Virus record (IMG/VR): IMGVR_UViG_2974703250_000001
Span: 13,567-77,566 of that record
DNA: 64,000 nt
Source: a virus
Taxonomy: Duplodnaviria > Caudoviricetes
Direction: 5' to 3' (one strand)
Part shown: positions 16,168-63,990 of the stretch, piece after piece
Layout: each line of letters starts with the position of its first letter
Numbering within the stretch: the first letter of the stretch is position 1
Translations under genes and position numbers: made by a program
The notes under the pieces: generated by a model
Database searches by the model: none
The model's input: the letters and a program-made list of their open reading frames with translations, nothing else
What the model was told of the DNA's origin: nothing

Positions 16168-16398
16168 CTAATCCTTTCGTATCGGGTACGTGCTGTGTAC
16201 GGACATTAATTCACGTAATTGCTTAATGTCAACAGGGATACCGTCTGCGGTCATTTTGCCGCGATACCTCATGCACTCGCATCGTTCCCCTTTGCGCTTA
16301 CGCCCGTGGTAGTGGCATCGCCAGCCGCCGCCGCGCTCGGGTGCGTGTGATGCGCGCCCGTGACCACAGCTTTCGCACAGCGGCCAGCGGATTCTCAC
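16168..16398 (-). CDS. Small Cys/His-rich (zinc-binding) protein
   Basis: CESCGH..SH...C.....CECMRY pattern; 4-bp GTGA overlap with the upstream small ORF. Confidence 0.55.
   Translation of the reverse strand: MRIRWPLCESCGHGRASHAPERGGGWRCHYHGRKRKGERCECMRYRGKMTADGIPVDIKQLRELMSVHSTYPIRKD
16203..16232 (-). promoter_or_regulatory. SigA-like promoter for lsr2
   Basis: Minus strand TTGACA-18 bp-TAATGT; a GTAC-N7-GTAC site lies just downstream at 16186-16200. Confidence 0.65.
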
Positions 16399-16523
16399 GT
16401 GCGTGCGTCCCGGTTAGGCGCGCAGTAAAGGTGCCATATTTTCGCCCAGCCGCGCCCGTATTCCTTGTAGAAGTGGCGCGCTGGCACTTCGTGTCCGCAC
16501 TTGACGCAGGTCGTGTCGCTCAT
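16395..16523 (-). CDS. 42-aa CxxC protein missing from the ORF track (MSDTTCVKCGHEVPARHFYKEYGRGWAKIWHLYCAPNRDART)
   Basis: Read by hand; GGAGA RBS upstream; stop overlaps the next start (GTGA). Confidence 0.55.
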   Translation of the reverse strand: MSDTTCVKCGHEVPARHFYKEYGRGWAKIWHLYCAPNRDART

Positions 16524-16638
16524 GCGCGCGTGTCTCCTACCGCACTTAGGTAACCACTAGTTCTCTGATCTGTTCGCTTACTCAACGTGAGTTGCGTTAG
16601 GGAGAGGATTAGGTTTTCGTTTCACAACCACATCTCAA

Positions 16639-17043
16639 GGTGACACTAGGTGGGTTGTTGTCGTCGCCTTAGTCGGGAACGGTACTAGCGACTCTCCTTG
16701 AAGAATCTTCTGCGGTTTTGCGATCTTCTGGAAATCTTAAGAAATTTCCTCATGGGAACCTCAGGCCCGGAAGTGGCCCCCGACATGTCCGCAGGTACAC
16801 GCCCTGTACAGCCCTGACCTGCGCCGACAGCGTTCTTAGTTGACACTTTTGGTGACACCTGACGAGAAAAAGCCTCTGACCTGCATGTTCTTAGCGGCAT
16901 CAGGGGATTAAAAGTCCGTAGAGGCAGGTGCTATCGTGCCAGGTGCGACATGTCAAACACGCAGCTAAGCGGGGTTTAGCACGCCTGTGCAGGCTTATGC
17001 AGGCACCGCGTAGTTGACACCTGTTGTTGACACTAGTTGACAC
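16639..17043. other. attP region with integrase arm-type repeats and candidate core at 16905-16921
   Basis: Non-coding gap before int. G(T/G)TGACAC repeats at 16639, 16839, 16851, 17013, 17026 and 17036. Core reverse complement CTACGGACTTTTAATCC is a tRNA-Lys(UUU) anticodon arm. Confidence 0.8.
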
Positions 17044-17057
17044 CTGGGAGGGTTCAG

Positions 17058-18365
17058 ATGGCCGAGACCGAGGAAAAAAATAAGAGGCGCAAGAGGGGTG
17101 ACGGAGGTCTCACTTACGACCCAAAGCGCGGCCTGTACATCGGCACCGTATGGGATAAGTGGCCGGACGGGAGGCCGCGCCAGCGCCGCGTCTCGTCAAA
17201 GAAAGAATCGGTGGCCGTAACGAAGCTGAACACGCTTCGCGCGGACGTTCTCAGCGGCAAGGCCGCGACGACGAACAAGACCATGACGGTTAGTGAGTGG
17301 CTGGACAAGTGGCTGGTGATCAAAAAGGCTGAGGTCCGGCCCAAGTCCTACGACAGCTACGAACTCGCGGTCCGGCTCTATATCAAGCCGCACATCGGGG
17401 ACAAGCGGTTGTCCAAGTTGACGGCGGCTGACGTGCGCGCCATGCAGACGGCGGTACAGAAAGGCACCAAGGGCATTAAGGGGTCTACCCGGAGCGCTCA
17501 GAAGGCCCACCAGACCCTCAACATGGCCCTCACGCAGGCCGTCCACGACGAGCACCTACACCGCAACCCATGCGTAGCCGTGAAGTTCCCCAAGCATGCA
17601 AAGAAGCAGCGTGGCGTGTTCGAGACGAGCGCGGCGGTTCACATTCTGCGGACGGCGGCGAAACGTGACGACGAGGACGACGCTAAGCGGCCTAAGCTCG
17701 CGTCCCGGTGGGTGGCCGCGTTTATGACCGGCGCGCGGCAAGCCGAGTGCATCGGTTTGGAGCTGGACCGTATCGACTTCAAGAACGACGTTATGGATAT
17801 CTCGTGGCAGTTGCAGCGGCTTTCGTATGACCACGGCTGCGGAGAGCCCGACGCTGACGGTAAGTACCCGTGCGGGCGGGTGCGAGTGGGGTACTGCCCG
17901 ACCCGCAAGTTCAACCCGCCACCCGGATTCGAGTACCGGCCCTGTCATCACTCGCTGTTCTGGACCCGGCCTAAGAGCTACGCCGGAGAACGGGTGGTTC
18001 CAATGGCACCGCTACTGAAAGAGTCGCTTAAGGTCCATATCCAGATGGATAAAGACCCGAACCCTTACGGGCTGGTGTGGCATCACCGAGACGGTAGGCC
18101 GATAAGCCAAGAGGACGATAACGAACAGTGGAACATGCTGATGGCTGCTGCTGGCGTCGATAAGAAGGCCGGAGAGGCTGTATTGCACGAGGCCCGGAAT
18201 ACGTCAGCGACGATGCTTCTAGAGTCGGGCGTTGACGTTAAGGTCATTCAGCAGATATTGGGGCACGCGTCGATCTTGCAGACGCGGGAATACCAGCGGG
18301 TGAGTTTGGAGCTGAGCAAGAGCGCCGTTAGTAATGCTTTCGACGCTCTGCTCCCGAACCTCTAG
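17058..18365 (+). CDS. int: Tyrosine integrase
   Basis: Catalytic R (TGARQAE), HEAR, LGH and Y (REYQ); N-terminal arm-binding and SAM-like domains; GGGAGG RBS before ATG 17058. Confidence 0.95.
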   Translation: MAETEEKNKRRKRGDGGLTYDPKRGLYIGTVWDKWPDGRPRQRRVSSKKESVAVTKLNTLRADVLSGKAATTNKTMTVSEWLDKWLVIKKAEVRPKSYDSYELAVRLYIKPHIGDKRLSKLTAADVRAMQTAVQKGTKGIKGSTRSAQKAHQTLNMALTQAVHDEHLHRNPCVAVKFPKHAKKQRGVFETSAAVHILRTAAKRDDEDDAKRPKLASRWVAAFMTGARQAECIGLELDRIDFKNDVMDISWQLQRLSYDHGCGEPDADGKYPCGRVRVGYCPTRKFNPPPGFEYRPCHHSLFWTRPKSYAGERVVPMAPLLKESLKVHIQMDKDPNPYGLVWHHRDGRPISQEDDNEQWNMLMAAAGVDKKAGEAVLHEARNTSATMLLESGVDVKVIQQILGHASILQTREYQRVSLELSKSAVSNAFDALLPNL

Positions 18366-19150
18366 ACTGCGCCGTCGAGCTGCTTAGGCGCAGTGGCCTT
18401 AGCGTTGCGCTTAAGCGGCTTCTGGCGGCGTACCGCCCGCCACATGTGAGCTTTCATGTAGCGCAGCTTCCGACGCCACGAAAGCGTTGAACCGACCATT
18501 AGCAGGATTGCGCCGACTGTGGCGAGCCGCCAACCCCAGTTCGTCGTGATGCTTAGCGAAACGATGTACCGGGATGACCAAGCGAGCCCACAGAGCGCGA
18601 AGGCAACCATGTACACATCAATGACCAGGTGTGAGCGTCGGTCGCTGGTGCGGATGCACCACAGGAGCCAGCAGATATGGCTTAGGAGCCACACGTAGCC
18701 GATCAGGACCATTGGGAAGACCAACCAGTGGCTACCGGTGATCCACGCGCCCACGGCGGTTGGCAGGGCGATAGTGGTAGGTAGGGAGATTCGTCGGGTG
18801 ATGTATCGGTGCTTCTGTGACTCGTCCCAGTCCATACGCCCGGCTAGATCGTAAAGAAACGTGCCGTAGGCGAGCATGAGCACGAGATATCCGGCCATGA
18901 CTTGCGGATAGACGCGGCCACTCTCAAGCGCGTCCGGAAGGAACGGGTTGAACGCAACGAGGTTCGGCGATAACAAGATCAGTGCGGCACACATGAGCGC
19001 GCCGGTAAGGGTGGTTCCCGTTTCCCATCGCACGTGCCACGTTCGTCGTCGGATCGCTTGGGTAATGACCGTCGTGACGACGAGTAGAAACATGAGTGCC
19101 CGATCTTCTACGGGTACGACGGCAGCGACATGCGCGAGCTGATGGATCAT
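18362..19150 (-). CDS. Multi-pass membrane protein downstream of repressor
   Basis: About 7 hydrophobic helices; own promoter candidate TTGACG-18-TACATT at about 19245-19274. Confidence 0.75.
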   Translation of the reverse strand: MIHQLAHVAAVVPVEDRALMFLLVVTTVITQAIRRRTWHVRWETGTTLTGALMCAALILLSPNLVAFNPFLPDALESGRVYPQVMAGYLVLMLAYGTFLYDLAGRMDWDESQKHRYITRRISLPTTIALPTAVGAWITGSHWLVFPMVLIGYVWLLSHICWLLWCIRTSDRRSHLVIDVYMVAFALCGLAWSSRYIVSLSITTNWGWRLATVGAILLMVGSTLSWRRKLRYMKAHMWRAVRRQKPLKRNAKATAPKQLDGAV

Positions 19151-19323
19151 GCGGCGGGGAGCCTTTACAAGAGTGGGCTTTTGTTCAGCCCGAAGGGAGG
19201 GAGGTAACGAGTTGATCGCGGTTGCGACTCAGCGCGTTACACGCAATGTACGCACACGCGAGCGCGTGCGTCAATATGCATTCGCAAGGATCTAGCAAAC
19301 TGGCCCGAAAGCCCGAAGGCGCG

Positions 19324-19704
19324 TCACAGAGGGGGTATGTCTGTGCGCGCCTTCGGCTTACTCATCCGGGGTTTCGGTCTTCGGACCACCCTCAAGATCG
19401 TTGCTTGTGGAGGGTTTGCCAGTTCTTCGTCAGCAATTACCTCTCCCTCGCGTTCTAGGTACGTGAGCAGGTCCGTTTTATCTAAGTGACCGAATCGGAC
19501 TAATAGGTCAACTTTGTCTAGGCCGAAGTGGTCGGCCAGCGCCATGAGGTTGGGGATGCTATTGAGCACCCCTTTGTCCCGCTGTTCGTAGTAGGTGGAG
19601 CGGGACATGCCCAGTGCGCCCAGCGCCTCCTGCATGCGTACCTGCCTCTTGAGTAGGTACGAGATGACCACTATCAGGTCGTTGTCTTCATCTTTGGCCG
19701 ACAT
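19324..19704 (-). CDS. Immunity repressor (HTH)
   Basis: Leftward HTH gene (ALGALGMSRSTYYEQR...LMALADHFGL) next to int and divergent from Cro-like and Xis genes. Confidence 0.75.
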   Translation of the reverse strand: MSAKDEDNDLIVVISYLLKRQVRMQEALGALGMSRSTYYEQRDKGVLNSIPNLMALADHFGLDKVDLLVRFGHLDKTDLLTYLEREGEVIADEELANPPQATILRVVRRPKPRMSKPKARTDIPPL

Positions 19705-19716
19705 GCGGACAAGTAT

Positions 19717-19799
19717 GTCCCGTTTTCCGGACCGGCACAACTACCCGCTACCTGCGAAAACAGAATGACATTCGTGTAATTTTGTCCGGAAAATCGGAC
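19717..19799. promoter_or_regulatory. Divergent immunity switch with two GTCC(G/C)-N6-CGGAC operators
   Basis: GTCCCGTTTTCCGGAC at 19717 and GTCCGGAAAATCGGAC at 19784. Confidence 0.65.
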
Positions 19800-20141
19800 A
19801 ACTTGAGACGACACCGGATTGTGATGTGTATGTTTCATCTCGTGCCGATCACAACCGCCTCACAGCCCAGCTACAAGATCGAGTGGATTCCCGAAGCCGT
19901 CGAGAACCTGCTCCACAACCACGACATTCTGAACCGCAACGAGCTAGCTAAAGAACTCAAAGTATCCAGGTCACGCGTCTACGAGACGTTTTCTGAGAAC
20001 TGGTCGGGCCGCGCCAGCATGAGGGTTCTGGAAGCCATGTGCGGACACTTCCGCGTACCGATCAGCCGCATCGTTACCGAGCCGGGTCGAGCGTCTGCCC
20101 AAGCTCGTGCCCGCCGACAGACTGTCCGGAAAACCGTATGA
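19782..20141 (+). CDS. Cro-like HTH protein
   Basis: RNELAKELKVSRSRVYETF HTH; divergent from the repressor; true start probably downstream of 19782. Confidence 0.75.
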   Translation: MSGKSDNLRRHRIVMCMFHLVPITTASQPSYKIEWIPEAVENLLHNHDILNRNELAKELKVSRSRVYETFSENWSGRASMRVLEAMCGHFRVPISRIVTEPGRASAQARARRQTVRKTV

Positions 20142-22069: not shown

Positions 22070-22310
22070 CTATAGGCGGTGTGCGCGCTGCAACGCCCTA
22101 TTGACGTTCAAGTACAGGAGATGTACGGTATGCAACATGGAACCGGAACTGGCCGCGTGGAAGAAGGAACTGCTGTGGCGTGCGACCTGGGATGCGGAGC
22201 GGTTTACCCCGCCGGGCGTGCATGGCAGCGCGACCTTCACCACTACGCCTCCGAAAAGGGCATCCTTCCCACCTGCGGGCGGGGTGCAGAGCGAAAGGCG
22301 CGAGCCGCTA

Positions 22311-23620: not shown

Positions 23621-23645
23621 TACCCACAACTAAATACCCACACAC

Positions 23646-28852: not shown

Positions 28853-29785
28853 GTGTATCCGGATGGCTACACGGCAGGCGACCCTAACGGCGTATGGCGC
28901 GAAGGTAGGGGGCGCGATGGAAAGCAAAAGCGCTGGTGGTACACCAAAGACGGCAAAGGCTACAGCCGCGCGTCCGGTGCTGGCAAAGGGCTCGACACTA
29001 AAGACGGGCTCATTGACTGGGCGGCGTGTCAGGCAGCCGTTGGAATCCTCTTGGACGCCTCCGCGCGCTCAGAGGTCGCAACGCTTATCAATGAGTACGA
29101 CGCCGATCCTTGGTACAAAGGCGACGACGGCGGAACCCGCTCAGGCAAAGAGCGGCTTAAAGCTGCTGTTGAGAAAGCGCGTAACGTTGCCGGTCAGCAC
29201 ACTGCTGCTTCTGCTGGCACTGAGTTCCATAAGCTCGGCGAACTTCGCAATAAAGGCGAGAGCCCGCGCATCGTCCAGGACCACCTAAAGGAACCGCTGG
29301 CGCAGTATGACCGCGCCGTGGAACCTATCGAGTTCCTAGAGCAGGAAATGTTAGTGGTCAATGACCATCTGGAACTCTGCGGGTCGGTCGATTACCTAAT
29401 GGGCTTGCCGCCGGGCATTACCACGCCGGACGGCGAATACCACGAAGATTCTCTAGTCGTGGTGGGCGACCTTAAGACGGGTCGCTGGGACGCTAAGCGT
29501 CCAATGAGCGTGACCTGCCAGTTGACCGCTTACGGGACTGGCGTCCGCTACGACCAGGAGACGAATACACGTACTCCGCTGCATCCCCGCATTAACAACA
29601 AATGGGGCGTCATGGTCCATTTCCCGATTATGACTAAGAACCCTAAGGTCCGCTTCTATTGGGTGGATTTGACGCTGGGGTTGAAGGCTTCGCTTCTCGC
29701 TAAAGAGGTTGAGGCTATGCGGCGAGTTTTCAGTTCTAAGGATTCTGAGCTAAAGGAGTTGAACCTTGACCATTACCAGTGGTGA
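28853..29785 (+). CDS. PD-(D/E)XK exonuclease (Cas4-like/RecE-like)
   Basis: GTEFH, GSVD, GDLKTG and QL.AY motifs; upstream of the ERF gene. Confidence 0.85.
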   Translation: MYPDGYTAGDPNGVWREGRGRDGKQKRWWYTKDGKGYSRASGAGKGLDTKDGLIDWAACQAAVGILLDASARSEVATLINEYDADPWYKGDDGGTRSGKERLKAAVEKARNVAGQHTAASAGTEFHKLGELRNKGESPRIVQDHLKEPLAQYDRAVEPIEFLEQEMLVVNDHLELCGSVDYLMGLPPGITTPDGEYHEDSLVVVGDLKTGRWDAKRPMSVTCQLTAYGTGVRYDQETNTRTPLHPRINNKWGVMVHFPIMTKNPKVRFYWVDLTLGLKASLLAKEVEAMRRVFSSKDSELKELNLDHYQW

Positions 29786-30074
29786 TACGAGCTTGGCTGC
29801 ATGGCAGTCGTTGGATAAGGACTATCTGCGCGAGTCGCAGCGGGCGGTCCTTAAGGCGCTCGGGCGTCTCCGCAAGGGTGGCACCGATACGGATATCGCT
29901 CGGGTCTACAACCGGTCGAAGTGGGGCGCGGTGCTGCCGCAGTCACCTTCGGGTCTGCGTACGCGTCGGGCTGAGCTGGTGAAGCAAGGCTTTGTGGTCG
30001 ATTCCGGCGCGCGTAAGCGTCTGCCGTCTGGCCGCTTGTCGGTCGTGTGGACCAAGGCAAAGAGCGGGGCCTAG
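29766..30074 (+). CDS. Small winged-HTH-like protein
   Basis: GTDTDI...SPSGLRTRRAELV..G.V.DSG..K..PSGR..VVW pattern. Confidence 0.6.
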   Translation: MTITSGDTSLAAWQSLDKDYLRESQRAVLKALGRLRKGGTDTDIARVYNRSKWGAVLPQSPSGLRTRRAELVKQGFVVDSGARKRLPSGRLSVVWTKAKSGA

Positions 30075-37990: not shown

Positions 37991-38090
37991 ACGGTTAAGT
38001 CCGGGTTTCCGGACGTTTTCGTGGGCATTGGGTACATGCGACGTACTGTTGTGTGTACCCAACAGCCCGACGAAAGAAAGGGGGTTGAAA

Positions 38091-39029
38091 ATGACTCTGA
38101 CTCTTACCGCAATGCGCGGTTATCCCGGCTCGGGGAAGTCGACTACGGCGCGCACTGTTGCTAATAACACGGGCGCGGTGGTGGTTTGTCGTGACGAGCT
38201 GCGGAACATGCTGCACGGCGTGTACTTCAACGATGGTTCTAACCATCCTAAGTCGCCTAAGGACTTTGAGGATGAGGTAACCATTGCGGAGCGTGCGCAG
38301 GTCGCAGCCTTTCTCAAGGCTGGCGTTTCGGTAGTTGTCGACGCTACGCATTTGGAGCCGTCTTACTTGCGTAAGTGGGCGAAGATGGCCTCAATGTACG
38401 GCGCTGACTTCGTGCGGGTCGATCACATCACGCCGGTTGACGAGTGTCGTAAGCGGGACCACGCCCGGATGCTCGCTGGTGGCCGGTACGTGGGTGACAA
38501 GGTTATCGAGAAGATGGCTAAGCGTCACCCGGTGAAGAACTGGCCGGATATTCAAGCGCCACCGACGTTCACGCCGGAGCCGGTTGAGTGGGAGCCGGGC
38601 CTGCCTACGGCAATCATTGTCGATATCGACGGCACGGTGGCGCACATGACGGGGCGTTCACCTTACGACTACAGCCAGGTCCATACCGACGTGGTTGATG
38701 AGCAGATTCGATGGCTGGTCAACACGGTTGAGTCCGAAGGCGTGTTCGTCCTGTTCGTGTCGGGCCGGGATGACGAGTGCCGGGAGGCTACTGAGAAGTG
38801 GCTTGCGGAAAACGGCATCGTCTACGACGAGCTGTACATGCGGCCTACCGGCGCTAAGGACAACCACGGGAACAAGCTGCCCGACTACCTGGTGAAGTCC
38901 GACCTGTTCGATAAGCATATTCGCGGCAAGTACAACGTGCGGTTTGTGCTCGACGACCGGGACCAGGTTGTGAACCTGTGGCGTGCGCTGGGCCTTAAGT
39001 GCCTGCAAGTTCAGCCGGGCGACTTCTGA
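38091..39029 (+). CDS. pnk: Polynucleotide 5'-kinase/3'-phosphatase (T4 PseT-like)
   Basis: GYPGSGKS P-loop, RDELR, VVVDAT; HAD motif DIDGT, SGRD, LDDR. Confidence 0.92.
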   Translation: MTLTLTAMRGYPGSGKSTTARTVANNTGAVVVCRDELRNMLHGVYFNDGSNHPKSPKDFEDEVTIAERAQVAAFLKAGVSVVVDATHLEPSYLRKWAKMASMYGADFVRVDHITPVDECRKRDHARMLAGGRYVGDKVIEKMAKRHPVKNWPDIQAPPTFTPEPVEWEPGLPTAIIVDIDGTVAHMTGRSPYDYSQVHTDVVDEQIRWLVNTVESEGVFVLFVSGRDDECREATEKWLAENGIVYDELYMRPTGAKDNHGNKLPDYLVKSDLFDKHIRGKYNVRFVLDDRDQVVNLWRALGLKCLQVQPGDF

Positions 39030-45009: not shown

Positions 45010-45407
45010 TGGCTGATCGTTTTGCGTGGTGGTTCGTGGGCGCGGTCAGTGGGGCCGCGCTCACGTTCTACCTGTTTGGACGCGGATGGATTGCTGTAGC
45101 TGAGGGGGATGAGTGACGTACACGCTTCTAGCTGGGGCTAAGGACTTGGCCCTGATCATGCACGACAACGGCTCAGTGTTCCGTTACAACCTTGGTCGGC
45201 GGGACGGGATTGTCTTCTACCAGGACGCGGACCATGCGGCGGCGCTGAATCCGGGCGAGAACCTGTCATGGACGTACTACGGCAAGACGTTCGAGGGTAT
45301 GCCCGCGCTGCGGGCCTGGTGGGACTATGTTCGCCTGCCGGGCGATCTTGGCGAGACTGACTTCGCTAAGCGTCGGGTGGACAAGGCCCTGGCCGACCTG
45401 CTGACTA

Positions 45408-45761
45408 ATGCCGCCTAAGTGGCCCTGGCCTGGCGACACTAAGGACGACCGATACCGCCGGATTATTGACCATTACCGGACAGCGCTGGCGGATATCGAC
45501 CTTGAGGCGTGCTTAGTGGTCGATAAGAAGATGGCCGAGTATGGGCAGCCGTGGGTGTCGGATAACTCGATTATCGACGTAAACGAAATGCTGAGCGCTA
45601 AGCAATTGGCTGAGAGGTTCGGCCTTTCGGAGTGGAATGTGCGCGATTGGGCGCGGCGTCACCCGGAGCGGATTCGCAAGCATAAGGCTGCTAACGGTCG
45701 GACACTATTCCGCGTTGGGGACGTGCTCACGTACCACGCGACTAAGGGGAGTAATGGCTAA
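45408..45761 (+). CDS. HTH DNA-binding protein
   Basis: LSAKQLAERFGLSEWNVRDWARR HTH. Confidence 0.75.
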   Translation: MPPKWPWPGDTKDDRYRRIIDHYRTALADIDLEACLVVDKKMAEYGQPWVSDNSIIDVNEMLSAKQLAERFGLSEWNVRDWARRHPERIRKHKAANGRTLFRVGDVLTYHATKGSNG

Positions 45762-45964
45762 CCTAGAGCTTAAGGGGCAGAGCAAAGAGTTCCTGGCGAA
45801 CACGAAGGCGATCAGTGGGCTCCGGGATGATGTAGAGAGCCAGAAGGTTTTTGCGCTGATCGAAATTAGCCGGTCGTTGGATCGCATCGCCACCTTTCTA
45901 GAGAAGCCGCTCTAAAGGGAACTCGTGAGCGTGCTTTAATAAATGAGGGGAGAATTTTACCCAA

Positions 45965-46372
45965 ATGTGGATTGATAGCCCGATTGTGCCTGGTATTCAG
46001 GTGTCCGATCAGGGCAAAGTTAGGGGTCCACGAAAGGAACTCTCCCAGTGGACTGACGACCGGGGCTGTAGGCGCGTCAAAGCGAACGGGAGGCCCTGGG
46101 CGGTACATATCCTCGTCTTGACTGCGTTCGTCGGCCCTAGGCCCGATGGGGCGGTGCCAAAGTGGCTTAATGGCGATCCAACGGATAACCGGCTGGTCAA
46201 TCTCAAGTGGCAGTTGCCGGATGACCCTGAGGTTCAGACTCGGGTCAATCGTTGCCGTAACGGTCACGTGTATTCACGAGAGAACACAAAGGTATGGGGG
46301 TCGGGTCACCGGATTTGTTTGGACTGCGAGAAAGGTAGTCCTCCGGTGTATCGGCTGCCAGAAGTGATTTAG
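45965..46372 (+). CDS. NUMOD4/HNH homing-type endonuclease
   Basis: QVSDQGKVRG...VHILVLTAFVGPRP...NGDPTDNRLVNL; C-terminal CRNGH...CLDC. Confidence 0.8.
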   Translation: MWIDSPIVPGIQVSDQGKVRGPRKELSQWTDDRGCRRVKANGRPWAVHILVLTAFVGPRPDGAVPKWLNGDPTDNRLVNLKWQLPDDPEVQTRVNRCRNGHVYSRENTKVWGSGHRICLDCEKGSPPVYRLPEVI

Positions 46373-46472
46373 CGCGCCCGCTTGTAAGCGGTTCTGGCTG
46401 CGCTAGGCGGATGCCGCGTAAGTCCCGTGGGGGAAACCTTAGGGGCGGCGGCGTCCGTTTTCTCGTAGGGGG

Positions 46473-46718
46473 GTGACTGTGAAGCCGTCAGACTTTGCAT
46501 GGTTAGCGCTCGCTATCGGCATTATCTCGTATGAGGTTGCGGCTCCACCTGGTGAGCTTATGAGTGAGGGCTGGGACCGCTATTTGCAGAGATTTCCGGT
46601 TACGGCGCGGGTGTTCCCGCTGCTGCTGACTCTGCATGTAATTAACGCGTTGCCTGACCGCTATGACCCGGTTCATCGCCTGGCTGTGTGGTTGGGAACG
46701 CTTGGGGGAAAGAATTGA
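46473..46718 (+). CDS. Small membrane protein
   Basis: AWLALAIGIISYE...GELMSEG.DRY pattern. Confidence 0.6.
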   Translation: MTVKPSDFAWLALAIGIISYEVAAPPGELMSEGWDRYLQRFPVTARVFPLLLTLHVINALPDRYDPVHRLAVWLGTLGGKN

Positions 46719-47083
46719 CCGATCCAAAGGAAGTGCTTGAGCATCTAGCAGCCGAGAAGGCCGCTAAGGCGGTTAAGCGTGACGCTATCAACCCGCAGCA
46801 TTACAAAGACGGCTGGTCAGACGGCGCAGAGCTGATCAGCATTACAGAGAACTTGACTAGCTCAGGCGGGCAGGCTGTGCAGTACATTGCACGGTCGACG
46901 CGGCTGGATTCCAGTAAGAACAAGGGCAAGAACACACTTGAGTGGATTCAAGACCTAGAGAAGGCTAAGTGGTTCCTTGACCGGGAGATTAAGCGTCTCC
47001 GGGGCAAGACCGCGATGCCGGTTAAGCCGTACTTGGTCAATGAGTTCGTGTACCCGATGAACGTTTACGGCGGCTTTCGTTGA
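46715..47083 (+). CDS. DUF3310-like protein
   Basis: DAINPQHYK...GQAVQYI.R...QDLEKAKWFLDREI. Confidence 0.75.
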   Translation: MTDPKEVLEHLAAEKAAKAVKRDAINPQHYKDGWSDGAELISITENLTSSGGQAVQYIARSTRLDSSKNKGKNTLEWIQDLEKAKWFLDREIKRLRGKTAMPVKPYLVNEFVYPMNVYGGFR

Positions 47084-47862
47084 GCGCCCGCGTCCTGATC
47101 CTCGACATTGAGACGCAGCGCGCCATTGTCGAGACATTCGGACTGTTTAAGCAGTTCGTCGGCATTGATCAGGTGCAGGTACCTACACGGGTGCTGTGTT
47201 TCGCGGCCAAGTGGCGCAATGAAGACAAGGTGATCTTCAAAGCTGCCTGGGCCGACAACGACGAGGACGCTTACCTGCGCATGATGCAGGCTGCGTGGGA
47301 GTTGCTTAACGAAGCCGATATCGTGGTCACTTGGAACGGTGACCGCTTCGACCTGCAATGGTTCGAGTCCGAGTTTCTACGCGTGGGCCTGAGTCGCCCC
47401 TTGCCATACAAGTCTGTTGACCTGATTAAGACGGTCCGGCGGTGGTTCAGGGGCGGGCTGATGAGCATGAAGCTCGATTGGTCGTCTCGCATGATCCTTA
47501 AGGACCGCAAGGTTCACCACGGCGGCACTGACCTTTGGTGGGATATCCGGCACGGTACGCGTGCTGAGCAGCGCGCGGCGCAGAAGCTCATGCGTGAGTA
47601 CAACGAGCACGACGTTGTTTTGACGGGTCGGCTATTTGAGAAGCATCTGCCGCATATCAACGTGAACTTGGCTTTGTACGAGGAAACGGTGGATGACGGC
47701 GAAATGCACTGCACTAAGTGCAACTCTACGGAACTTAAGAAAGACGGCGTGAAGGCTTACGTCACTGCTGCGGGTGTCTATCAGATGTACCGCTGCAAGG
47801 ACTGTGGGGCGACTTCGCGCGGTAAGCGTATTAGCGGAACTACTGAATTGAGGCCAGTGTGA
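47080..47862 (+). CDS. DnaQ/RNase H-like 3'-5' exonuclease with C-terminal zinc ribbon
   Basis: LDIET, WNGDRFD, KLD, YNEHDV; CTKC...CKDC. Confidence 0.85.
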   Translation: MSARVLILDIETQRAIVETFGLFKQFVGIDQVQVPTRVLCFAAKWRNEDKVIFKAAWADNDEDAYLRMMQAAWELLNEADIVVTWNGDRFDLQWFESEFLRVGLSRPLPYKSVDLIKTVRRWFRGGLMSMKLDWSSRMILKDRKVHHGGTDLWWDIRHGTRAEQRAAQKLMREYNEHDVVLTGRLFEKHLPHINVNLALYEETVDDGEMHCTKCNSTELKKDGVKAYVTAAGVYQMYRCKDCGATSRGKRISGTTELRPV

Positions 47863-51182: not shown

Positions 51183-51259
51183 AGCTCGGTAGCTCAGTCT
51201 GGTAGAGCGGCGGTCTCCAAAGCCGCATGTCGCAGGTTCAAATCCTGTCCGGGTTGCCA
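51183..51259 (+). tRNA. tRNA-Trp(CCA)
   Basis: GCGGT-CTCCAAA-GCCGC; encoded CCA. Confidence 0.9.
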
Positions 51260-51282
51260 TTGGCGTACAAGCCGTGTACTAT
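51254..51282 (+). promoter_or_regulatory. Promoter for the main tRNA block with GTAC-N7-GTAC operator
   Basis: TTGCCA-17 bp-TACTAT; ATG 7 nt downstream (leaderless). Confidence 0.7.
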
Positions 51283-51622
51283 GTGTGACATGAAAGCTGA
51301 ACTGTTGAACGCAGCAGGTATCTTGGCGCGACGGCTGGGTGATCAGTTCTCCCGGTTGCACCTGTGGCTGTATGGGTTGTCGGGCACGTTGGATGGCATG
51401 GCTGACAGCGCCGGGTACTGGGATCGCCACGATGCCTAAGACGCCCGACTTTCGTCACTTGGTGGTCGAGGACACGGCTGGGTTTCTGCGTCGTCGCTTC
51501 GGCATGTCTGAGGTCGACGCGAAAGCTGAGGCTGAGCGCCAGGTGGACGCTCTGGCTGAGCGGTCCGAGCAGGGCTACTCAGACTCTTTGGGGCTGTGGT
51601 GACATAAAGGCCGATTTTTTCA

Positions 51623-52102: not shown

Positions 52103-52175
52103 GCCTCGTTAGCTCAGTTGGTAGAGCTGCCGACTCTTAATCGGTAGGTCACAGGTTCAAGTCCTGTACGGGGTA
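52103..52175 (+). tRNA. tRNA-Lys(CTT)
   Basis: GCCGA-CTCTTAA-TCGGT. Confidence 0.92.
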
Positions 52176-54127: not shown

Positions 54128-54323
54128 CTTATTGGCGCTTAATCGTCACACTGGCTATGTGGCCGTGTTTCTCGATTTCGTGCTGTACCGCTTCGGCTGC
54201 TAGTTCACGTATGAACGTCTTAGCGGTGAGCGGTCCGACTAACTTAAAGTCCTCTATCAACTTGTCTAGGTCCATTGTGCAGACGAGTGTGATGAGGAAT
54301 TGACCTTTAGGGCGTTGCATGGG

Positions 54324-54396
54324 TGCCCCCACTAGGGATCGAACCTAGGACCCGATGATTAAAAGTCACCTGCTCTGCCAACTGAGCTATAGGGGC
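54324..54396 (-). tRNA. tRNA-Lys(TTT), the only leftward tRNA
   Basis: Reverse complement GCCCCTATAGCTCAGTTGGCAGAGCAGGTGACTTTTAATCATCGGGTCCTAGGTTCGATCCCTAGTGGGGGCA. Confidence 0.92.
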
Positions 54397-55361: not shown

Positions 55362-55682
55362 TCATTGCTGCACCGTCCACATGAGGCGGGCCGCAACCAA
55401 CTCGGCCTCAACGAGGTTGACCGTGGTCAGGGTGGTGTGAAACGAGCGGGCGTCAGCCTCGGTGTTGCACCGGATGACCTCATGCTCATAGTTCGGCCCG
55501 TAGGGCTGATAACGAACACCCCAGATCGTTCCGCCTGAGTAGACACCAGAGACGCCGGTTGGCCGCTTCTCGCCGCAGTCCTTGCAGATGTGCCCTTTGA
55601 GCAGGCGCTTTCCGCCCGTGTTGCACCTGACGCAGATACCTACTCCGATGAACTTGGGAGGCTTTGGTTTCGTGGTGGACAT
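55362..55682 (-). CDS. Zinc-finger hypothetical protein, leaderless
   Basis: CVRC...CKDC; ATG 7 nt after the -10 box TACAGT. Confidence 0.6.
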   Translation of the reverse strand: MSTTKPKPPKFIGVGICVRCNTGGKRLLKGHICKDCGEKRPTGVSGVYSGGTIWGVRYQPYGPNYEHEVIRCNTEADARSFHTTLTTVNLVEAELVAARLMWTVQQ

Positions 55683-55735
55683 GTCTATCACTGTACAACC
55701 CGTGTACCGTGGTGTCAACTACCAATTTTGCCGTT

Positions 55736-56599
55736 TCAGGCGGCGATGAGGTTTAGCTCTTTAAGCACACCCTTAACGAACTGCCCAGCCTCACTGTCCC
55801 GTGAGATGACGGGAATGTAGATCGAGTAAGGCGGAAAGTCTTCCATGTCCTGAGCGTTGTGGATCGGGCTACCGTATCCACCCTCCGGGTAAATGCCGCA
55901 CTTCTTACGAACGTCGGCGGGGTGCGAGTGCATCGCGTTGAACAGGTGGCACCGCAGGAATGAGTTGTGCGTAAGCGAGTACATGAACATGCTTACGTCG
56001 AACGGCTCACCGGCCTTCTTGAGGCGCACAGCGGTGCGGGCGTACTTCTTAGTTTCGTCCCAGCCGCCGCTAACGTACATGTCGACCCAAATTTCGGCCT
56101 GCATGCCCGTGGTTTCGATGGCCTCGACGAGTGCCATCATGGCCTGACCATTCTTTTTGATCGCTTCTGCGCTGATCATGCAGTTGTAAGTAACGTTAAG
56201 GATCAGGGCAACGATCTTGGACTGGCCTGGTTCCTCGACGGGGTAATACTGCACCATGCACTCAGGCTCACCCTCGACGTAGCGGCCCATGTCCACGACA
56301 GCGCCGGACACGTCGTAGGTCTCATCGAACATTGGCCGGTGCAGCTCGCCAGCCATGAGCGCCACGTTCTGACTAGCCAGCTTGATTGCCTCGACACCTG
56401 ACCGGGGGAGGCCCTGGCGGGCCAGCTTGTCGGCTTCCTGCATGTTGTCACAGCCGTAGAAGCGCTTGCCGCCACCGTCGCCCATGTGTGCGGAACGGTA
56501 GTCGTGCTCGCGGTTGTGGTTGATCAGATCGTGGAACGACTCGAACGTGATAACGGACCGGTCGCGGCCTTCTTCGGAAGTCTCACGGATTTTGCGCAT
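55736..56599 (-). CDS. vWA-like partner of AAA ATPase (paralogue 2)
   Basis: YDVSGAVVDMGRYVEGEPECM; LILNVTYNC; paralogue of 59470-60300. Confidence 0.75.
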   Translation of the reverse strand: MRKIRETSEEGRDRSVITFESFHDLINHNREHDYRSAHMGDGGGKRFYGCDNMQEADKLARQGLPRSGVEAIKLASQNVALMAGELHRPMFDETYDVSGAVVDMGRYVEGEPECMVQYYPVEEPGQSKIVALILNVTYNCMISAEAIKKNGQAMMALVEAIETTGMQAEIWVDMYVSGGWDETKKYARTAVRLKKAGEPFDVSMFMYSLTHNSFLRCHLFNAMHSHPADVRKKCGIYPEGGYGSPIHNAQDMEDFPPYSIYIPVISRDSEAGQFVKGVLKELNLIAA

Positions 56600-56695: not shown

Positions 56696-57060
56696 ACTAC
56701 TTCGACCACCTGTGCCGGGACGGATAGGGTGTCTCCGTCCTCGTTCGCGCCACCGGTCACCACAACCACGCCGCGAAGGCAGTCGACGCCGCGAGCGTGC
56801 GGGTTCAGGCTCCACCATAGAGCCGTGGCCTGCACGTTCTCCGGCTGATTCAAGATTCTACCCATGTCGTTGCCGTAGAAGGTGACATCGAACGCGCCAT
56901 CGCCTGCGACGGCTGCGGGTGTCCACCCGTATACGGCCTCAATATCCCCGTTGACCAGGGCGCGAATCGTAGCCAGCTCGGTCCTACGGGGAACGGTGAT
57001 CACGTCGTGCGTGCCGTCCAGGTTCAGGACTAGTGCCGTGTACTGCGGTTCGCTGCTCAT
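56674..57060 (-). CDS. DUF3846-like protein, leaderless
   Basis: L.TIRALVNGDIEAV...YGND.G.....PEN..AT..W...L.GVVVVTG..E.GDT. Confidence 0.7.
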   Translation of the reverse strand: MSSEPQYTALVLNLDGTHDVITVPRRTELATIRALVNGDIEAVYGWTPAAVAGDGAFDVTFYGNDMGRILNQPENVQATALWWSLNPHARGVDCLRGVVVVTGGANEDGDTLSVPAQVVEVVEQVGGE

Positions 57061-57093
57061 GTCACTCAGCGTACATGCGGTGTACCGAGTCTG

Positions 57094-57327
57094 TCAACAC
57101 CTATCTTCAACTGAAAATCGGGGGTTCTTCCCTGCGGCGATGTTCTGCAAGGTGCCACGCGGAAAGCCGGTGACTACCTCTAGTTCGTTATAGGAATAGC
57201 CAGAGTCTTTAGCTTCGCGGATGGCATCATAGAGCGCCACAATGCCAGCGGTGACAGTGCGGGCCTGTTCCTCTATCCCAGCTAGGGTGGCGTCAGTTGC
57301 CATGCTCGGAGAGTACACGCTCTCCAT
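57094..57327 (-). CDS. Small HTH protein
   Basis: IREAKDSGYSYNELEVVTGFPRGTLQNI. Confidence 0.6.
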   Translation of the reverse strand: MESVYSPSMATDATLAGIEEQARTVTAGIVALYDAIREAKDSGYSYNELEVVTGFPRGTLQNIAAGKNPRFSVEDRC

Positions 57328-58847
57328 CGTTAACCTCTCTTAGGCGCGCGTCGATCCAGTCGATACGGGCTTGCCGTTGCTCTATCTCACGCACTAGTTC
57401 GGCACGCTCAGCACCTAGCTTGGCGCGCTCGTTTCGGAGCATTGACGCTGCAACACTGTCCGGAATGTTCTTTAGAACATTAGCCATAGTTAAACCGCCC
57501 TAGTTCAGCCTCAGTTCGTTAAACTCGATGGCTTTTATGTGTGGGTTCGATTCTTTCCAGTCGGCTATTGCGCCTAGCACGTAGGTGACGGGTCCGTCGA
57601 ACTCGCGTACCACTACGGGCTGTAGTCCGTGGCGTTCGTAGCGGGCGTTGTCGAACCCGCTGATTCTTACGTACATGCGTACGCCTCCGCTGCTTGTACT
57701 CGGTGCTCGAAGCTGGGACGCACCGCCTGGTCATATGAGTCTAGCTTGACCAGCATGTTTCCGATCCGACTCACGGGCTCATTCCTCTTGCTTGAGTGCT
57801 TCGTGGCGGCGCTGTATGTCGTCGTTGAGTAGGCCCTCTAGGAGGGCGACACGCGACTTTAGCTCTGTTACCTGGTGTACCCACGCGTCAGCGTTGGCCT
57901 TGACGATGCCCTGCCAAGACTCTGACCAGCGCTGGTTCACGTCGTGGAGTCGCTGGATTTCGGCGACCAGTTCGGCGCGTGTCGCGGTGTCGAGGTCAAC
58001 TCGAATGTCACCCATGTCAGTCCTGTCCAGGCAGTGTGAGGCCGACCCTTGGTGGCAGTGTGGGGTGTAGGGCGACGACTGGGGTACCTCCGAAGTAGAG
58101 GGACGCCAGGACGACACGCCAGATCGCCTGTGCTTGCTCGTGCCATGCCAGCATGTCAGTTGTCCTCATCGTTGGGGTTCCAGAGCACTACGGCAGGAAA
58201 GGCTTCTTCGGGGAACTGGTGGCTCCACATGTAGTCGTCGTCCCCGGCGGGGTACCACGCTTCGTCCAACTGCCAAACGATCCGGTTGTTCTCGCCTAAG
58301 GCTTCGCCTCGAAACTGCACCACGGAGAACTGTGGCAGTTCGTTGAGTTCATCAACGTTGTCTACGCGCTTCATGTCAGCTCGCCATCGCCAGCGCGTCG
58401 TCCAGGTCGTCATCAGCCACAGCCTCAACCGCGGCCTTGAGACCGAACTTGCCCCGGTTGGACGTGTCCTTGAACGGGAGCTGCGGGTGCGGCTCATCCG
58501 GGAACACGGTGGTCCCGTCCTCATAGATGACGGTCAGTCCGGTCGGGCTGACCCACTTGATTTTGGCTTCGGTCATGTCAACCACGATACACAGCGTGTA
58601 CTCAGTGGTCAACACCAATTGTTTGGAGGCATTAAGCGCAATTTAGTTTGCGGTTAGCGCAATTTAGTTGGGGGCCGGGCCGGTGGCCGCTGAGCCCTGG
58701 TTAGGGCCGGGGTGGTGCGAAACCAAGCAGCTCCCACGGCTGAGGCCGGACCGCACTAAGCGGCTAAGGCTGGTCAGCGCGTATGAGACCTAAGGACCGG
58801 GGCGGTTCAGAACCGAGCAGCTCCCACCGAGAGGGGATGAATTAGCT

Positions 58848-59422: not shown

Positions 59423-59454
59423 AAAAGCGCCAGGGTAGTAACTCACCCTGGCGC
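59423..59454 (-). terminator. Leftward intrinsic terminator
   Basis: GCGCCAGGG/CCCTGGCGC hairpin followed by TTTT on the minus strand. Confidence 0.75.
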
Positions 59455-59469
59455 TGTGTCTGGTACGGG

Positions 59470-60300
59470 CTAGGCCGCAATACCCAAGTCTCGGAGAATC
59501 TTGGTAACGATGGCCTCCCCATTGTCACCCATGCGGATAGATGGCAGATAAACCGCGTCCGGCCCGTAGCTCTCGACTACGCCATTCTCACCCTTAGCGG
59601 GGTAACCGTACGTGCCACCTACGCCGTAGTTGCTGTGCAGGTTCTCAGGCATATGGTGCATAGCGTTCAGGCCAAGTACCCGCATCATTGATGCGTCGGT
59701 GTACGCGTACATGACTGCGCCCATGTCCAGCGGTGCGCTTGCTGGCTTGATTTTGACGCTGGCGCGCCAGTGGTGCTTAGGCTTAGTCCAGCTAGGCGCA
59801 ACCGTAAAGTCTGCCCATAGCTCAGTGCTCCGTCCGCTGGACTCGATAGCCTTGACCAGAGCGACAACCAAGCGGCCACGTGCGGCCATCTCAGCGGTAG
59901 AGATACCGCAGCTAGCCGCAATGTTGGACACCAGCGTAACCACGGGCCGCTGGACTGGCGCGGCCTGGATCACGTATTCCACCATGCACTCAGGCTCACC
60001 GGTCATGTAGCGGCCCATGTCTACGTACGAGCCGCCAACGTCATACGTGCCCTGCAAGTCCTGAGCGTCAATCTGACGCATGGCCGCGTCAGTGAGTGAC
60101 CGGCTAGCGTCAAGCGCTTTGATGCCATTCTCTGGAATGCCAGCCTTAGCGCGGTCTACCGCGTCACCAAAGCTGGACACTCCGTAAAAGCTAGCGTTAC
60201 CTACGTGCTTGTGTTGGTTGTCCGCTTGGTAATCGGCGAACGCTGCAAGCGACGGATACACGTGCTGCAAAATGCGCTTGGACTCATTAACGGTGAACAT
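59470..60300 (-). CDS. vWA-like partner of AAA ATPase (paralogue 1)
   Basis: YDVGGSYVDMGRYMTGEPECM; directly downstream of the AAA gene; AGGAGA RBS before ATG 60300. Confidence 0.75.
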   Translation of the reverse strand: MFTVNESKRILQHVYPSLAAFADYQADNQHKHVGNASFYGVSSFGDAVDRAKAGIPENGIKALDASRSLTDAAMRQIDAQDLQGTYDVGGSYVDMGRYMTGEPECMVEYVIQAAPVQRPVVTLVSNIAASCGISTAEMAARGRLVVALVKAIESSGRSTELWADFTVAPSWTKPKHHWRASVKIKPASAPLDMGAVMYAYTDASMMRVLGLNAMHHMPENLHSNYGVGGTYGYPAKGENGVVESYGPDAVYLPSIRMGDNGEAIVTKILRDLGIAA

Positions 60301-60427
60301 GATTCTCCTAGAGGGTCGCGGGGTAGGTGGTTGTGGTGTGAGTGCCACGTTACAGGCCATGTACCCCGAACGCAAGCGACCCGGCTAGCTGAGTGCTAAC
60401 CGGGCCGCTAAGCGCTTAGGTACCGCT

Positions 60428-61681: not shown

Positions 61682-61887
61682 GGTGTCCTCCGTAGGTGGT
61701 AGGTCGTGGTTGTGGTGTGCCCATTACGTTACAGCACGCGTACCTTAACGCGCAACTCTTAACTACAGACTATGTACTTTGTGCAGGTGAGACGGTGTGT
61801 CGACTGTCGCTAGCTGTGGTTAGGCGCAACGCAAAGCGACCCGGCTACCGCTTGGGTAACCGGGCCGCTAGGTGGTTGGTTAGTGGG

Positions 61888-62388: not shown

Positions 62389-62631
62389 TCAGTTCCAACC
62401 GTCCGCGTCGGTGTACAGGTCGCAATCGTTCAGGTACACGTGACCGTCAACATTGGTCACTGTGCAGCGCATGACCGGGCCGCTACCGGTATCGGCCTTA
62501 GCGTGGCCGCTGAGCGTCAAGCTAAGGGCAGCCAGGGCAGCGCCAAGGGTGACGAGTAGCGCCAGCCGGTTAAGGCCGCGTCGGGTCAAGCTGCGCTGTG
62601 TTGTGACGTTGATCTGAGGTGTGGTGCTCAT
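62389..62631 (-). CDS. Small secreted protein
   Basis: TRRGLN basic patch, hydrophobic helix, AKA cleavage site; mature part has a Cys pair. Confidence 0.6.
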   Translation of the reverse strand: MSTTPQINVTTQRSLTRRGLNRLALLVTLGAALAALSLTLSGHAKADTGSGPVMRCTVTNVDGHVYLNDCDLYTDADGWN

Positions 62632-62714
62632 GGTGGCTAGTCCTTAGGTGGTTGTGGTTGTGGGTGGTTGGGTTGCGGCCCGGCTAGCTGAGTGCCAACC
62701 GGGCCGCACGATGG

Positions 62715-63119
62715 CTAGTAGCGACCCTTAGCCGCCGCGTAAGAGTTGTTCAGCCGGTCAATCAACCGGGTTGCCTCAGCGATCAAGTGCTCAGCCTCAG
62801 CGGTAGCCCAATCGCCGGGCAGGATGGCCGCGTGCGGTAGTGCCCGCTGTGCCGTTGCAATGGCGCTCTGTGCGTATCCGACGCGGCTGGACATGTAAGC
62901 CCTATCCATGAGCCCGTGAGCCCGTGCCATGAGTCGGCTGTGTGCCGTATCGGCCTCAGCACGTGCGGCCCACTGGTGCATGTCCTCAATCTCATCAGCG
63001 GTAGGCATGGTGTCCGGGTCGCTGTGGTCCGCGTAGTGGTCAATCGTGCCCGCAACCATGCGCTTGGTCTCGATATCGGTAATGGTGTCCAGAAGCTGGT
63101 CAATGTAGGTGGTGCTCAT
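62715..63119 (-). CDS. Hypothetical protein (first gene of the right-end leftward operon)
   Basis: GGAGG RBS before MSTTYIDQ; promoter TTGCGC-18-TACGGT at 63160-63189. Confidence 0.65.
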   Translation of the reverse strand: MSTTYIDQLLDTITDIETKRMVAGTIDHYADHSDPDTMPTADEIEDMHQWAARAEADTAHSRLMARAHGLMDRAYMSSRVGYAQSAIATAQRALPHAAILPGDWATAEAEHLIAEATRLIDRLNNSYAAAKGRY

Positions 63120-63249
63120 GGTGTGTACCTCCGGTGAGTAGTGGTTGTGGTGTGCCATCACCGTACACCGCATGTACGTATACGCGCAAGCCTTAGCACT
63201 TAGGTCGCTTAGGGCAGTGGTCGCGGTACGAAACCAAGCAGCTTTTTAG

Positions 63250-63660
63250 AACGCTGCACACACACCCACACCACAAACCGGGCCATCACTCACACAGCCA
63301 TGCCACACCATGCGTCCACACAGCCCACAGCCCATACAGCGCCATATCCACGCGCCACACACAGCAGAGCGCACACAGGGCACACAGCGACCCGCTAGCA
63401 GCCACACACAGCCATCCATAGCGCTACGCCATGCCATCGCATAGGCACACCCAACACAGCCGCTCACGGAGCGCTACAGCCACACATCCACACACAGCCT
63501 CAGGGCAAGCACACACAGGGCACAGGGCAGCGCTACGCCATAGGGCACACACACCACACAGCACAGCCACCTAAGGCCATGCCTAAGCCATCGCTACCGC
63601 ACAGCCATAGGGCACACAGGGCACAGCGCTAAGGCACACACACAGAGCAACCTAAGGCCA
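63250..63660. repeat. CA-rich low-complexity tract (CACACAG-type units)
   Basis: Many CACACAG(C/G)/CACAGCC units with strong strand asymmetry; no credible ORF. Confidence 0.75.
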
Positions 63661-63990
63661 TCCCTCAAGGGTGCGACACACAGGGAACGCAACACACCGA
63701 CATAGTTGACACAGTGCGTACATGGTGTGTACCATGCCCCACCTTACGGTCGAGCTAACAGATCAAAGTGTTTGCTGGGCACACCCTAACGCATTGTTTC
63801 TAGCAAACACCCTTCACAACGCTCTGACCAGCACAAACGGTTATCGCTTAGGTGTCGAGAACTGTGACTAACCAGGCCGCTTAGACGTTGCCATGCCGCA
63901 GCAAACGCCCTCGAAAAGCGCTCTGACCTGGTGTTATGTCGTCACAATGACCCCCTGGGGGGTATCCCGCGAGCTTAGCCGGAGCCCTCC

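Follow-up and report, generated by a model that had tools for sequence, protein, structure and literature searches.

Phage operators that occur in many copies are of a familiar kind. The Cluster A mycobacteriophages (L5/Bxb1) carry stoperators, asymmetric 13-bp sites which are orientation-dependent, lie in transcribed DNA and serve as binding sites of the immunity repressor. In the Cluster O mycobacteriophages a 17-bp repeat (TGTTCGG-N3-CCGAACA) is present in more than 30 copies genome-wide, many of them inside genes; these phages have eight to nine strongly predicted SigA-like promoters and some leaderless transcripts, and the protein binding the repeat is unknown (PMC4351075). Here we analyze the dyad GTACA-N5-TGTAC in the genome of a temperate mycobacteriophage (IMG/VR record IMGVR_UViG_2974703250_000001). 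The window, that is the whole stretch of 64,000 nucleotides analyzed, comprises bases 13567-77566 of the 77,566-bp genome and extends to its right end; positions are counted from the first base of the window. From the comparisons described below we suggest that GTACA-N5-TGTAC is probably the operator of a phage-encoded dimeric DNA-binding protein which is separate from the immunity pair Rep/Cro.

With the stoperators of Cluster A the element has in common that many sites spread over the genome would serve one phage repressor in a global control of transcription, as proposed here. Unlike the stoperators, however, the sites are symmetric, lie on promoters and are separate from the immunity operators. 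The likeness to Cluster O consists in the many copies of a cluster-specific dyad and in predicted SigA-like promoters some of which are leaderless. The sequence and length of the dyad are different, and the about 14 copies found here are nearly all on promoters, whereas the Cluster O repeats were not reported to lie at a fixed promoter position (PMC4351075). We found no description of GTACA-N5-TGTAC in the literature searched (Cluster L/LeBron promoters, inverted repeats, leaderless operators).

Judged by its sequence, the genome is that of a Cluster L (L4-like) temperate mycobacteriophage. Chaser, Douge and Bromden, all of Cluster L, are the closest relatives (87-90% identity); CELFI, Faith1, MkaliMitinis3 and LeBron are more distant. 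The genomes compared cover subclusters L1-L5, with Baudelaire as a distant L5 phage. The gene order is as in Chaser: tail and lysis genes, the leftward lsr2 cassette, attP and int, and then the leftward membrane protein and repressor genes. These are followed by a long rightward early operon headed by cro, the tRNA block and the leftward right arm.

Number and spacing of the sites

In the window GTAC-N7-GTAC occurs nine times against 0.74 copies expected, and none of 100 shuffles reached nine. An earlier note on this DNA had listed eight perfect copies and estimated that chance would give about one. All eight are present at the coordinates that it gave; a ninth, at 22112-22126, had been overlooked. 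The one-mismatch copies in its list (19237, 58587, 60350 and 61729) are all real, and an extra site lies at 61763. Pairs of GTAC were counted for each spacing from 0 to 30: N7 gives nine pairs, each other spacing zero to three. No copy was found in the first 13.5 kb of the genome. We rejected the idea that GTAC is a restriction-avoidance signal, as the tetramer is not depleted (279 observed, 241 expected).

When all 4- and 5-mer dyads with spacings of 0-12 were scanned without bias, TACA-N5-TGTA came out as the top dyad of this genome (11 copies against 0.25 expected, p = 4e-15) and GTACA-N5-TGTAC as the top one among the 5-mer dyads (7 against 0.06 expected). TACA-N5-TGTA also ranks at or near the top in LeBron (8 copies), CELFI (6) and Faith1 (4). 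We thus describe the element as the 15-base sequence GTACA-N5-TGTAC with the core TACA-N5-TGTA. Compared with GTACANNNNNTGTAC, seven sites are perfect (0.06 expected) and seven have one mismatch (1.26 expected). One of these 14 matches, a one-mismatch match at 52155, is merely the T-arm of a tRNA and was discarded as an operator. The remaining 13, together with the site at 61729, which has two mismatches to GTACANNNNNTGTAC and the right context, make up the total of 14 sites.

The earlier note had allowed for the motif being no commoner in promoters than in coding DNA. The sites lie within the non-coding DNA, which is 13.5% of the window. The lone exception, 16186, falls into the final codons of a small open reading frame (ORF) just upstream of lsr2.

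Position of the sites in promoters

We then asked for SigA-like promoters with a filter that ignores the dyad (TTGnnn or a 5/6 match to TTGACA, 17-18 nt, TAnnnT). Only 11 sequences of the whole genome pass this filter in its strict form, and 8 of them bear the dyad; the other three strong matches are antisense and inside genes. Eight SigA-like promoters with an embedded site had been named before; we confirm these, and a ninth was found at 22101. All nine share a common register: the -35 box, 5-6 nt, GTACA-N5-TG and TACnnT, so that the dyad spans -24 to -10. The promoter spacers are 17 or 18 bp long. The register is different at two further promoters, where the dyad occupies -13 to +2 (promoter at 19274) and about -4 to +11 (lsr2 promoter), and two copies, at 16795 in attP and at 61763, are away from a promoter core. 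The sites and promoters are as follows.

16186-16200, minus strand: operator, GTACACAGCACGTAC in the minus-strand reading, 2 nt past the lsr2 -10 and covering the expected start site
16232-16227 (TTGACA), 18 nt, 16208-16203 (TAATGT), minus strand: lsr2 promoter, with the dyad downstream of the -10
16795-16809, no strand assigned: perfect copy in attP, between arm-type TTGACAC repeats, without a convincing promoter
19237-19251, minus strand: operator over -10/+1 of the promoter TTGACG (19274-19269), 18 nt, TACATT (19250-19245)
22101-22137, plus strand: leaderless esterase promoter, TTGACG, 17 nt containing GTACAGGAGATG, TACGGT, 7 nt, ATG at 22137; operator 22112-22126
38032-38046, plus strand: copy 45 nt upstream of pnk (ATG at 38091), with a -10-like TACTGT and a poor -35
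51254-51290, plus strand: leaderless promoter behind tRNA-Trp, at the head of a 49-aa ORF and of the main tRNA block; operator 51265-51279
55682-55718, minus strand: leaderless promoter TTGACA, 17 nt, TACAGT, ATG at 55682; operator 55693-55707
57060-57097, minus strand: leaderless promoter of a DUF3846 gene, ATG at 57060, directly 3' of the candidate regulator gene; operator 57071-57085
58576-58612, minus strand: leaderless promoter TTGACC, 17 nt, TATCGT, ATG at 58576, heading the operon that ends in the candidate regulator; operator 58587-58601, one mismatch
60347-60375, minus strand: class II promoter (TTGCGT, TAACGT) with a 49-nt leader containing CACACCACAACCAC, for a DUF7192 (vWA-like) gene, ATG at 60300; operator 60350-60364
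61726-61777, minus strand: class II promoter of an AAA-ATPase gene, ATG at 61681; operator 61729-61743 and a second copy, 61763-61777, 34 bp upstream
63160-63189, minus strand: class II promoter (TTGCGC, TACGGT) serving the gene 62715-63119; operator 63163-63177
63706-63735, plus strand: rightward promoter TTGACA, 18 nt, TACCAT, 264 nt from the right cos end; operator 63718-63732

The promoters fall into two families with common flanks. At five of them the ATG (22137, 51290, 55682, 57060 and 58576) follows exactly 7 nt past the -10, and leaderless mRNAs are therefore expected. The second class (operators at 60350, 61729 and 63163) has the -35 box TTGCG(C/T) and a leader of 43-49 nt with CACACCACAACCAC and a Shine-Dalgarno sequence. 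The 14-mer CACACCACAACCAC has three exact copies in the window, all within these leaders and on the minus strand (60327-60340, 61706-61719 and 63141-63154), and may be an element of the leader RNA or of translation. Leaders in Baudelaire have CCAACCAAC-like runs.

Several of these arrangements are found again in the relatives. The layout of lsr2 promoter and dyad is the same in LeBron, Chaser, Douge, Bromden and Baudelaire, and the attP copy is the identical 15-mer in Chaser, Douge and Bromden. At the promoter at 19274, which serves a gene for a polytopic membrane protein (18362-19150, gene-36-like), the -10 is formed by the left half-site and the dyad reaches about +2; this site is kept in LeBron, Faith1, MkaliMitinis3, CELFI, Chaser, Douge and Bromden. 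LeBron, Faith1 and CELFI share the position of the pnk site, which here is adjoined on its upstream side by an immunity-type dyad, GTCCG-N6-CGGAC. In Chaser and Douge the upstream copy at 61763 matches GTAC-N7-GTAC perfectly. The genome opens with a TerS-like gene that starts at base 122 of the genome; the promoter at 63706 therefore faces the packaging/structural operon in the circularized or integrated genome.

The earlier note held that the sites control the lsr2 block, the attP region, the membrane gene after the repressor, pnk, the main tRNA block and the right-arm operons. At most of these loci the site is indeed embedded in a SigA-like promoter, where a control is likely. The copies in attP (16795) and before pnk (38032) lack a convincing -35, and their link to these loci is positional. 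The description of the controlled set as accessory and counter-defence genes was too narrow: practically every SigA-like promoter outside the immunity switch is included, among them the esterase and the cos-proximal promoters.

Between the divergent promoters at 63189 and 63706, close to the right cos end, there are about 500 bp of non-coding DNA (63200-63700) with degenerate repeats that are CA-rich and asymmetric between the strands (units like GGGCACACA and GCCATAG).

Conservation among Cluster L phages

Perfect copies of GTAC-N7-GTAC are present in Chaser (9), Douge (10), Bromden (9), CELFI (6), LeBron (4), Faith1 (2) and MkaliMitinis3 (2). A reversed control was run for five of these genomes (Chaser, CELFI, LeBron, Faith1 and MkaliMitinis3) and gave no copy in any of them. 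The dyad recurs in subclusters L1-L5, with variable N5 and flanks. In seven relatives (LeBron, Faith1, CELFI, Chaser, Douge, Bromden and Baudelaire) the dyad-blind promoter filter recovers TACA-N5-TGTA at the same offset with zero to two mismatches. A matrix built from 72 unique promoter-like sequences, picked by their -35 and -10 boxes only, has raised information at -24 to -20 (GTACA), at -14/-13 (TG) and at -10 (C).

Orthologous promoters were compared in individual alignments only, since a pooled count of pairwise differences blends the registers and takes in false promoters. The half-sites persist, whereas N5 and the 5-6 nt past the -35 change freely. In the cos-proximal promoter different phages have tggtg, cgtgc, tgggg, cacca or caggg as N5. 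The lsr2 promoters of different subclusters have unrelated spacers, and the dyad moves there by 0-2 nt relative to the -10. As the half-sites are kept while N5 and the flanks drift, the element behaves as a protein-binding site and not as a sigma contact or a duplicated relic. A related provirus, G408 (IMGVR_UViG_2869221657_000003; complete, 84.7 kb, Cluster L-related, with a syntenic right arm), has 14 GTAC-N7-GTAC sites in the usual promoter register (control 0). There the change of -14 from T to C accompanies a change of -20 from A to G, and because both change together the symmetry of the dyad is kept.

One could argue that there is no regulator at all and that the dyad is inherent in the promoters or was left behind, frozen, when promoters were duplicated. 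Indeed, the right half-site supplies the TA of the -10 hexamer, a TG directly before the TA is also present at the cro promoter, which is without the GTAC dyad, and the shared flanks of the two promoter families would fit a duplication. However, the left half-site lies in the spacer, which is not read by SigA, and the full dyad also occurs at -13 to +2, just past a -10, 34 bp upstream of a promoter and in attP. Moreover, N5 and the flanks differ between copies as well as between orthologues, and the paired change in G408 preserves the symmetry. We consider this explanation very improbable. The comparisons support an operator-like behavior of the element over a role within the promoter consensus; the traits in question are the dyad symmetry, the distance of 10 bp between the half-site centers, three registers relative to the -10, and copies outside the promoter core.

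Separation from the immunity switch

The rep-cro region bears another dyad, TGTCCG-N6-CGGACA and variants of it (19707-19801). TGTCC-N8-GGACA is found in three copies each in LeBron, Faith1, MkaliMitinis3 and CELFI. The recognition helices of Rep and Cro are alike (SRSTYYE and SRSRVYE), as would be expected if both use an operator of this type. Both genes look leaderless (region 19700-19845): rep has its ATG at 19704 with CATACT 7 nt upstream, and cro a GTG at about 19840 with TATGTT 7 nt upstream.

The distant phage Baudelaire allows the two dyads to be told apart. The identity of its Rep and Cro to their counterparts in the phage studied here is only about 31%, TGTCC-N8-GGACA was not found in its whole genome, and other dyads are present in its rep-cro gap. 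GTAC-N7-GTAC, however, occurs six times against 0.53 expected and is second among all dyads there. Since the GTAC dyad persists although rep, cro and the immunity dyad have changed, it is not the operator of Rep/Cro; on these sequence comparisons we regard it as distinct from the immunity operator. The earlier note had proposed a dimeric regulator separate from the protein that binds the immunity operators. The separateness holds, as the dyads dissociate in Baudelaire; which protein binds, with which sign and at what time, is inferred.

A candidate for the binding protein

The candidates with a putative helix-turn-helix (HTH) among the proteins of the phage are those encoded at 57094-57327 and 45408-45761, Xis, a winged-helix-like protein (29766-30074), three WhiB proteins and Lsr2. 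Our leading candidate is the following.

57094-57327, minus strand: candidate operator-binding HTH protein of 77 aa (69 aa if the second ATG is the start)

This small protein is in our view the most likely binder of GTACA-N5-TGTAC, a tentative choice that may about as well prove wrong. Its gene is the last one of the operon under the operator-bearing promoter at 58612, which implies autoregulation, as the operon's own promoter bears the operator. It also lies directly 5' of another operator-bearing promoter, here as well as in LeBron, Baudelaire, G408 and a second provirus, G409. An AlphaFold2 (AF2) model (pLDDT 82.6) predicts a helix of 29 residues (13-41). Behind it the model has a helix-turn-helix, formed by residues 46-53 and 57-64, whose pLDDT is above 90. 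Residues T59 and N62 would thus be in the recognition helix, since the modelled helix spans 57-64.

The recognition helix and the operator vary together. In G408 the fifth base of the half-site is G in 21 of 28 cases, compared with A in 16 of 18 in the phage studied here (Fisher p = 2e-6), and the homologue, 71% identical overall, has the recognition helix RGNLQVI and not RGTLQNI. In G409, where the homologue is 47% identical and has the helix RGSLQRI, the two GTAC-N7-GTAC sites (reversed control 1) have left halves GTACG and right halves GGTAC. Genomes with GTACA operators, in turn, read RGTLQNI despite an overall identity of 59-73% (LeBron 59%, Faith1 70%); the helix in Baudelaire is RGTLQKI. 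A metagenomic homologue that has kept T59 and N62 has TTACA-N5-TGTAT behind it, again in register. A scan of metagenomes for further variants of the recognition helix yielded only three loci, two of them too short. One covariation of the recognition helix with the fifth base of the operator can thus be shown at the level of sequence. The operator variant of G408, GTACG(G)-N-(C)CGTAC, is often a 7-1-7 palindrome.

The candidate resembles 434 Cro, SinR and the C proteins of restriction-modification systems in that it would be an HTH protein of 70-80 aa with half-sites one helical turn apart and a predicted negative autoregulation; proteins of these types are among its weak fold matches. Unlike dimers of the Xre/Cro type, it has no significant sequence or fold match, and the N-terminal helix of 29 residues replaces the usual five-helix bundle.

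Proposed mode of regulation

We suggest that the regulation proceeds as follows. At most promoters the operator occupies -24 to -10 and the right half-site hence shares the TA of the -10; at the others it covers -10/+1 or the start site. A dimer bound at these positions would exclude the SigA RNA polymerase and thereby repress. The output of every SigA-type promoter of the phage that lies outside the immunity switch could in this way be set by one protein. Its regulon would consist of the lsr2 cassette, the esterase block, pnk and the tRNA block, the membrane protein next to the repressor, six operons of the right arm and the promoter near cos. The protein encoded at 57094-57327 would be negatively autoregulated. 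On infection the operator-bearing promoters would fire and then be damped, and in the lysogen they would be kept low.

The gene for tRNA-Lys(TTT) (54322-54396) has its own conserved extended -10, TGnTACACT (54414-54406, minus strand), which ends 9 nt before the mature 5' end. This extended -10 is kept in Chaser, Douge, CELFI, Faith1 and MkaliMitinis3, with unrelated sequence upstream. It is without the dyad and is the sole conserved promoter-like element found that lacks an operator, in keeping with the idea that an operator is present where a promoter has to be kept low. The tRNA-Lys(TTT) promoter may stay active in lysogens while the operator-bearing promoters may be held down.

Taken as a whole, the circuit would be a second one, independent of immunity, in which an autoregulated HTH protein of 69-77 aa (57094-57327) acts on an operator in every SigA-type promoter including the one that crosses cos, the lysogeny-essential tRNA-Lys(TTT) is operator-free, and the changes T59N and N62V have co-evolved with the change from GTACA to GTACG. 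This complete picture is possible, though rather less likely than not. It would define a second regulon set apart from the immunity switch. For a group of about 90 sequenced temperate mycobacteriophages it would give a promoter map that is nearly complete; we found no published description of their promoters or operators. The compact repressor/operator pair, with its natural specificity variant, might be of use as a genetic switch in mycobacteria. Douge and Bromden, which are right-arm deletion variants, might behave differently.

Alternative binders

Several observations weigh against the proposed assignment and circuit. Foremost, the candidate gene is absent from Douge and Bromden owing to right-arm deletions, although 10 and 9 perfect sites remain; if the assignment is right, these deletions must be recent. 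The match of the candidate to the Xre-like HTH family of Pfam is subthreshold (17.4 against 25.8 bits), and with Foldseek there is no match at E = 0.001; all matches have E above 0.3 and are largely to HTH proteins. The covariation rests on two variant lineages, one of them with only two sites. A repressed cos-proximal promoter leaves the turn-on of the late genes without explanation. Finally, TTGACA-N5-GTACAC-N3-GTGTAC-NNT is the form of two promoters in an unrelated phage contig of 72% GC (IMGVR_UViG_3300048590_000304), where the sites are at 7366 and 10897 of the stretch examined and the leaders measure about 45 nt.

Another phage protein might bind the operator, be it one of the two following or an unrecognized small protein.

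45408-45761, plus strand: second candidate, HTH_17/MerR-like, 117 aa, present in 9/9 relatives examined
54132-54320, minus strand: 63-aa protein, starting at the 3' end of tRNA-Lys(TTT) and co-transcribed with it, 100% identical in CELFI

The nine relatives that have the first of these include Douge, Bromden and Baudelaire, and its HTH_17/MerR-like features would suit the dyad insofar as operators of the MerR type are also dyads in the promoter spacer. MerR promoters, however, have spacers of 19-20 bp and are activated by DNA distortion, whereas here the spacers measure 17-18 bp and the dyad is also found outside the spacer. Furthermore, the recognition region of this protein differs in Faith1, which has the same operator, and is nearly unchanged in G409; it does not track the operator. 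Relatives of it occur in Cluster E, where the genome of Kostya is without any copy of the dyad, and its gene is within the early lytic operon. The 63-aa protein belongs to a family confined to Cluster L phages and prophages, and its gene sits behind the operator-free tRNA-Lys(TTT) promoter, so that it could be made in lysogens. However, Pfam, PDB and a fold search gave no DNA-binding match for it, a deletion has truncated it in Bromden, and Baudelaire and G408 yielded no copy. On balance we think it unlikely that a phage protein other than our candidate is the binder.

Three more assignments were considered and dropped. The likeness of the 63-aa protein to a ribbon-helix-helix protein is one by eye, without support from Pfam, PDB profiles or Foldseek and with a low-confidence model. 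The gene-36-like protein after the repressor is a polytopic membrane protein and not a regulator. For the winged-helix-like protein (29766-30074) neither Pfam nor PDB gave a match, and the search in Baudelaire did not find it.

The 72% GC contig bears on a different explanation, namely that a host transcription factor binds the dyad and ties the phage promoters to a host signal. Boxes for host factors are known in phage promoters, LexA boxes for example, and the two promoters of the contig are identical in design to those described here. Over the 12 kb compared, no protein in common with this phage was detected, and both HTH candidates are without a match in the whole 41.6-kb record. The common design may be due to convergence, to a wider use of the motif or to a host factor. 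However, in a sample of 401 Actinomycetes genomes the perfect dyad occurs only 0-4 times per genome and does not exceed the reversed control, a comparison of low power as it covers perfect sites only and the host species is not identified. (The sample includes the unpublished genomes G264, G008, G044 and G305; the result is independent of these four.) Nor does GTACA-N5-TGTAC match the actinobacterial Cheo-type LexA box, whose core is GAAC-N4-GTTC. The coherent change of the fifth base in the related provirus G408 is expected of a co-evolving phage protein and not of a conserved host factor. A host factor is thus, in our opinion, quite improbable, and a phage-encoded dimeric protein remains the reading that we prefer.

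Other observations

Two paralogous vWA-like (DUF7192) genes, 55736-56599 and 59470-60300, both on the minus strand, bracket a block of 3.7 kb. Douge has a single vWA-like copy beside the AAA-ATPase gene (45090-47293 of its examined stretch), as if recombination between the paralogues had deleted the block.

Further dyads are over-represented in Cluster L genomes. CGCT-N1-AGCG is present in 11-23 copies against 2-4 expected in the genomes scanned (the genome studied here, LeBron, Faith1, MkaliMitinis3, CELFI and Baudelaire), and its longer form ACGCT-N1-AGCGT has six copies in LeBron. Likewise, CCTTAAGG occurs in 9-12 copies against about 1.3 expected in the genome studied here, Faith1, MkaliMitinis3 and CELFI.

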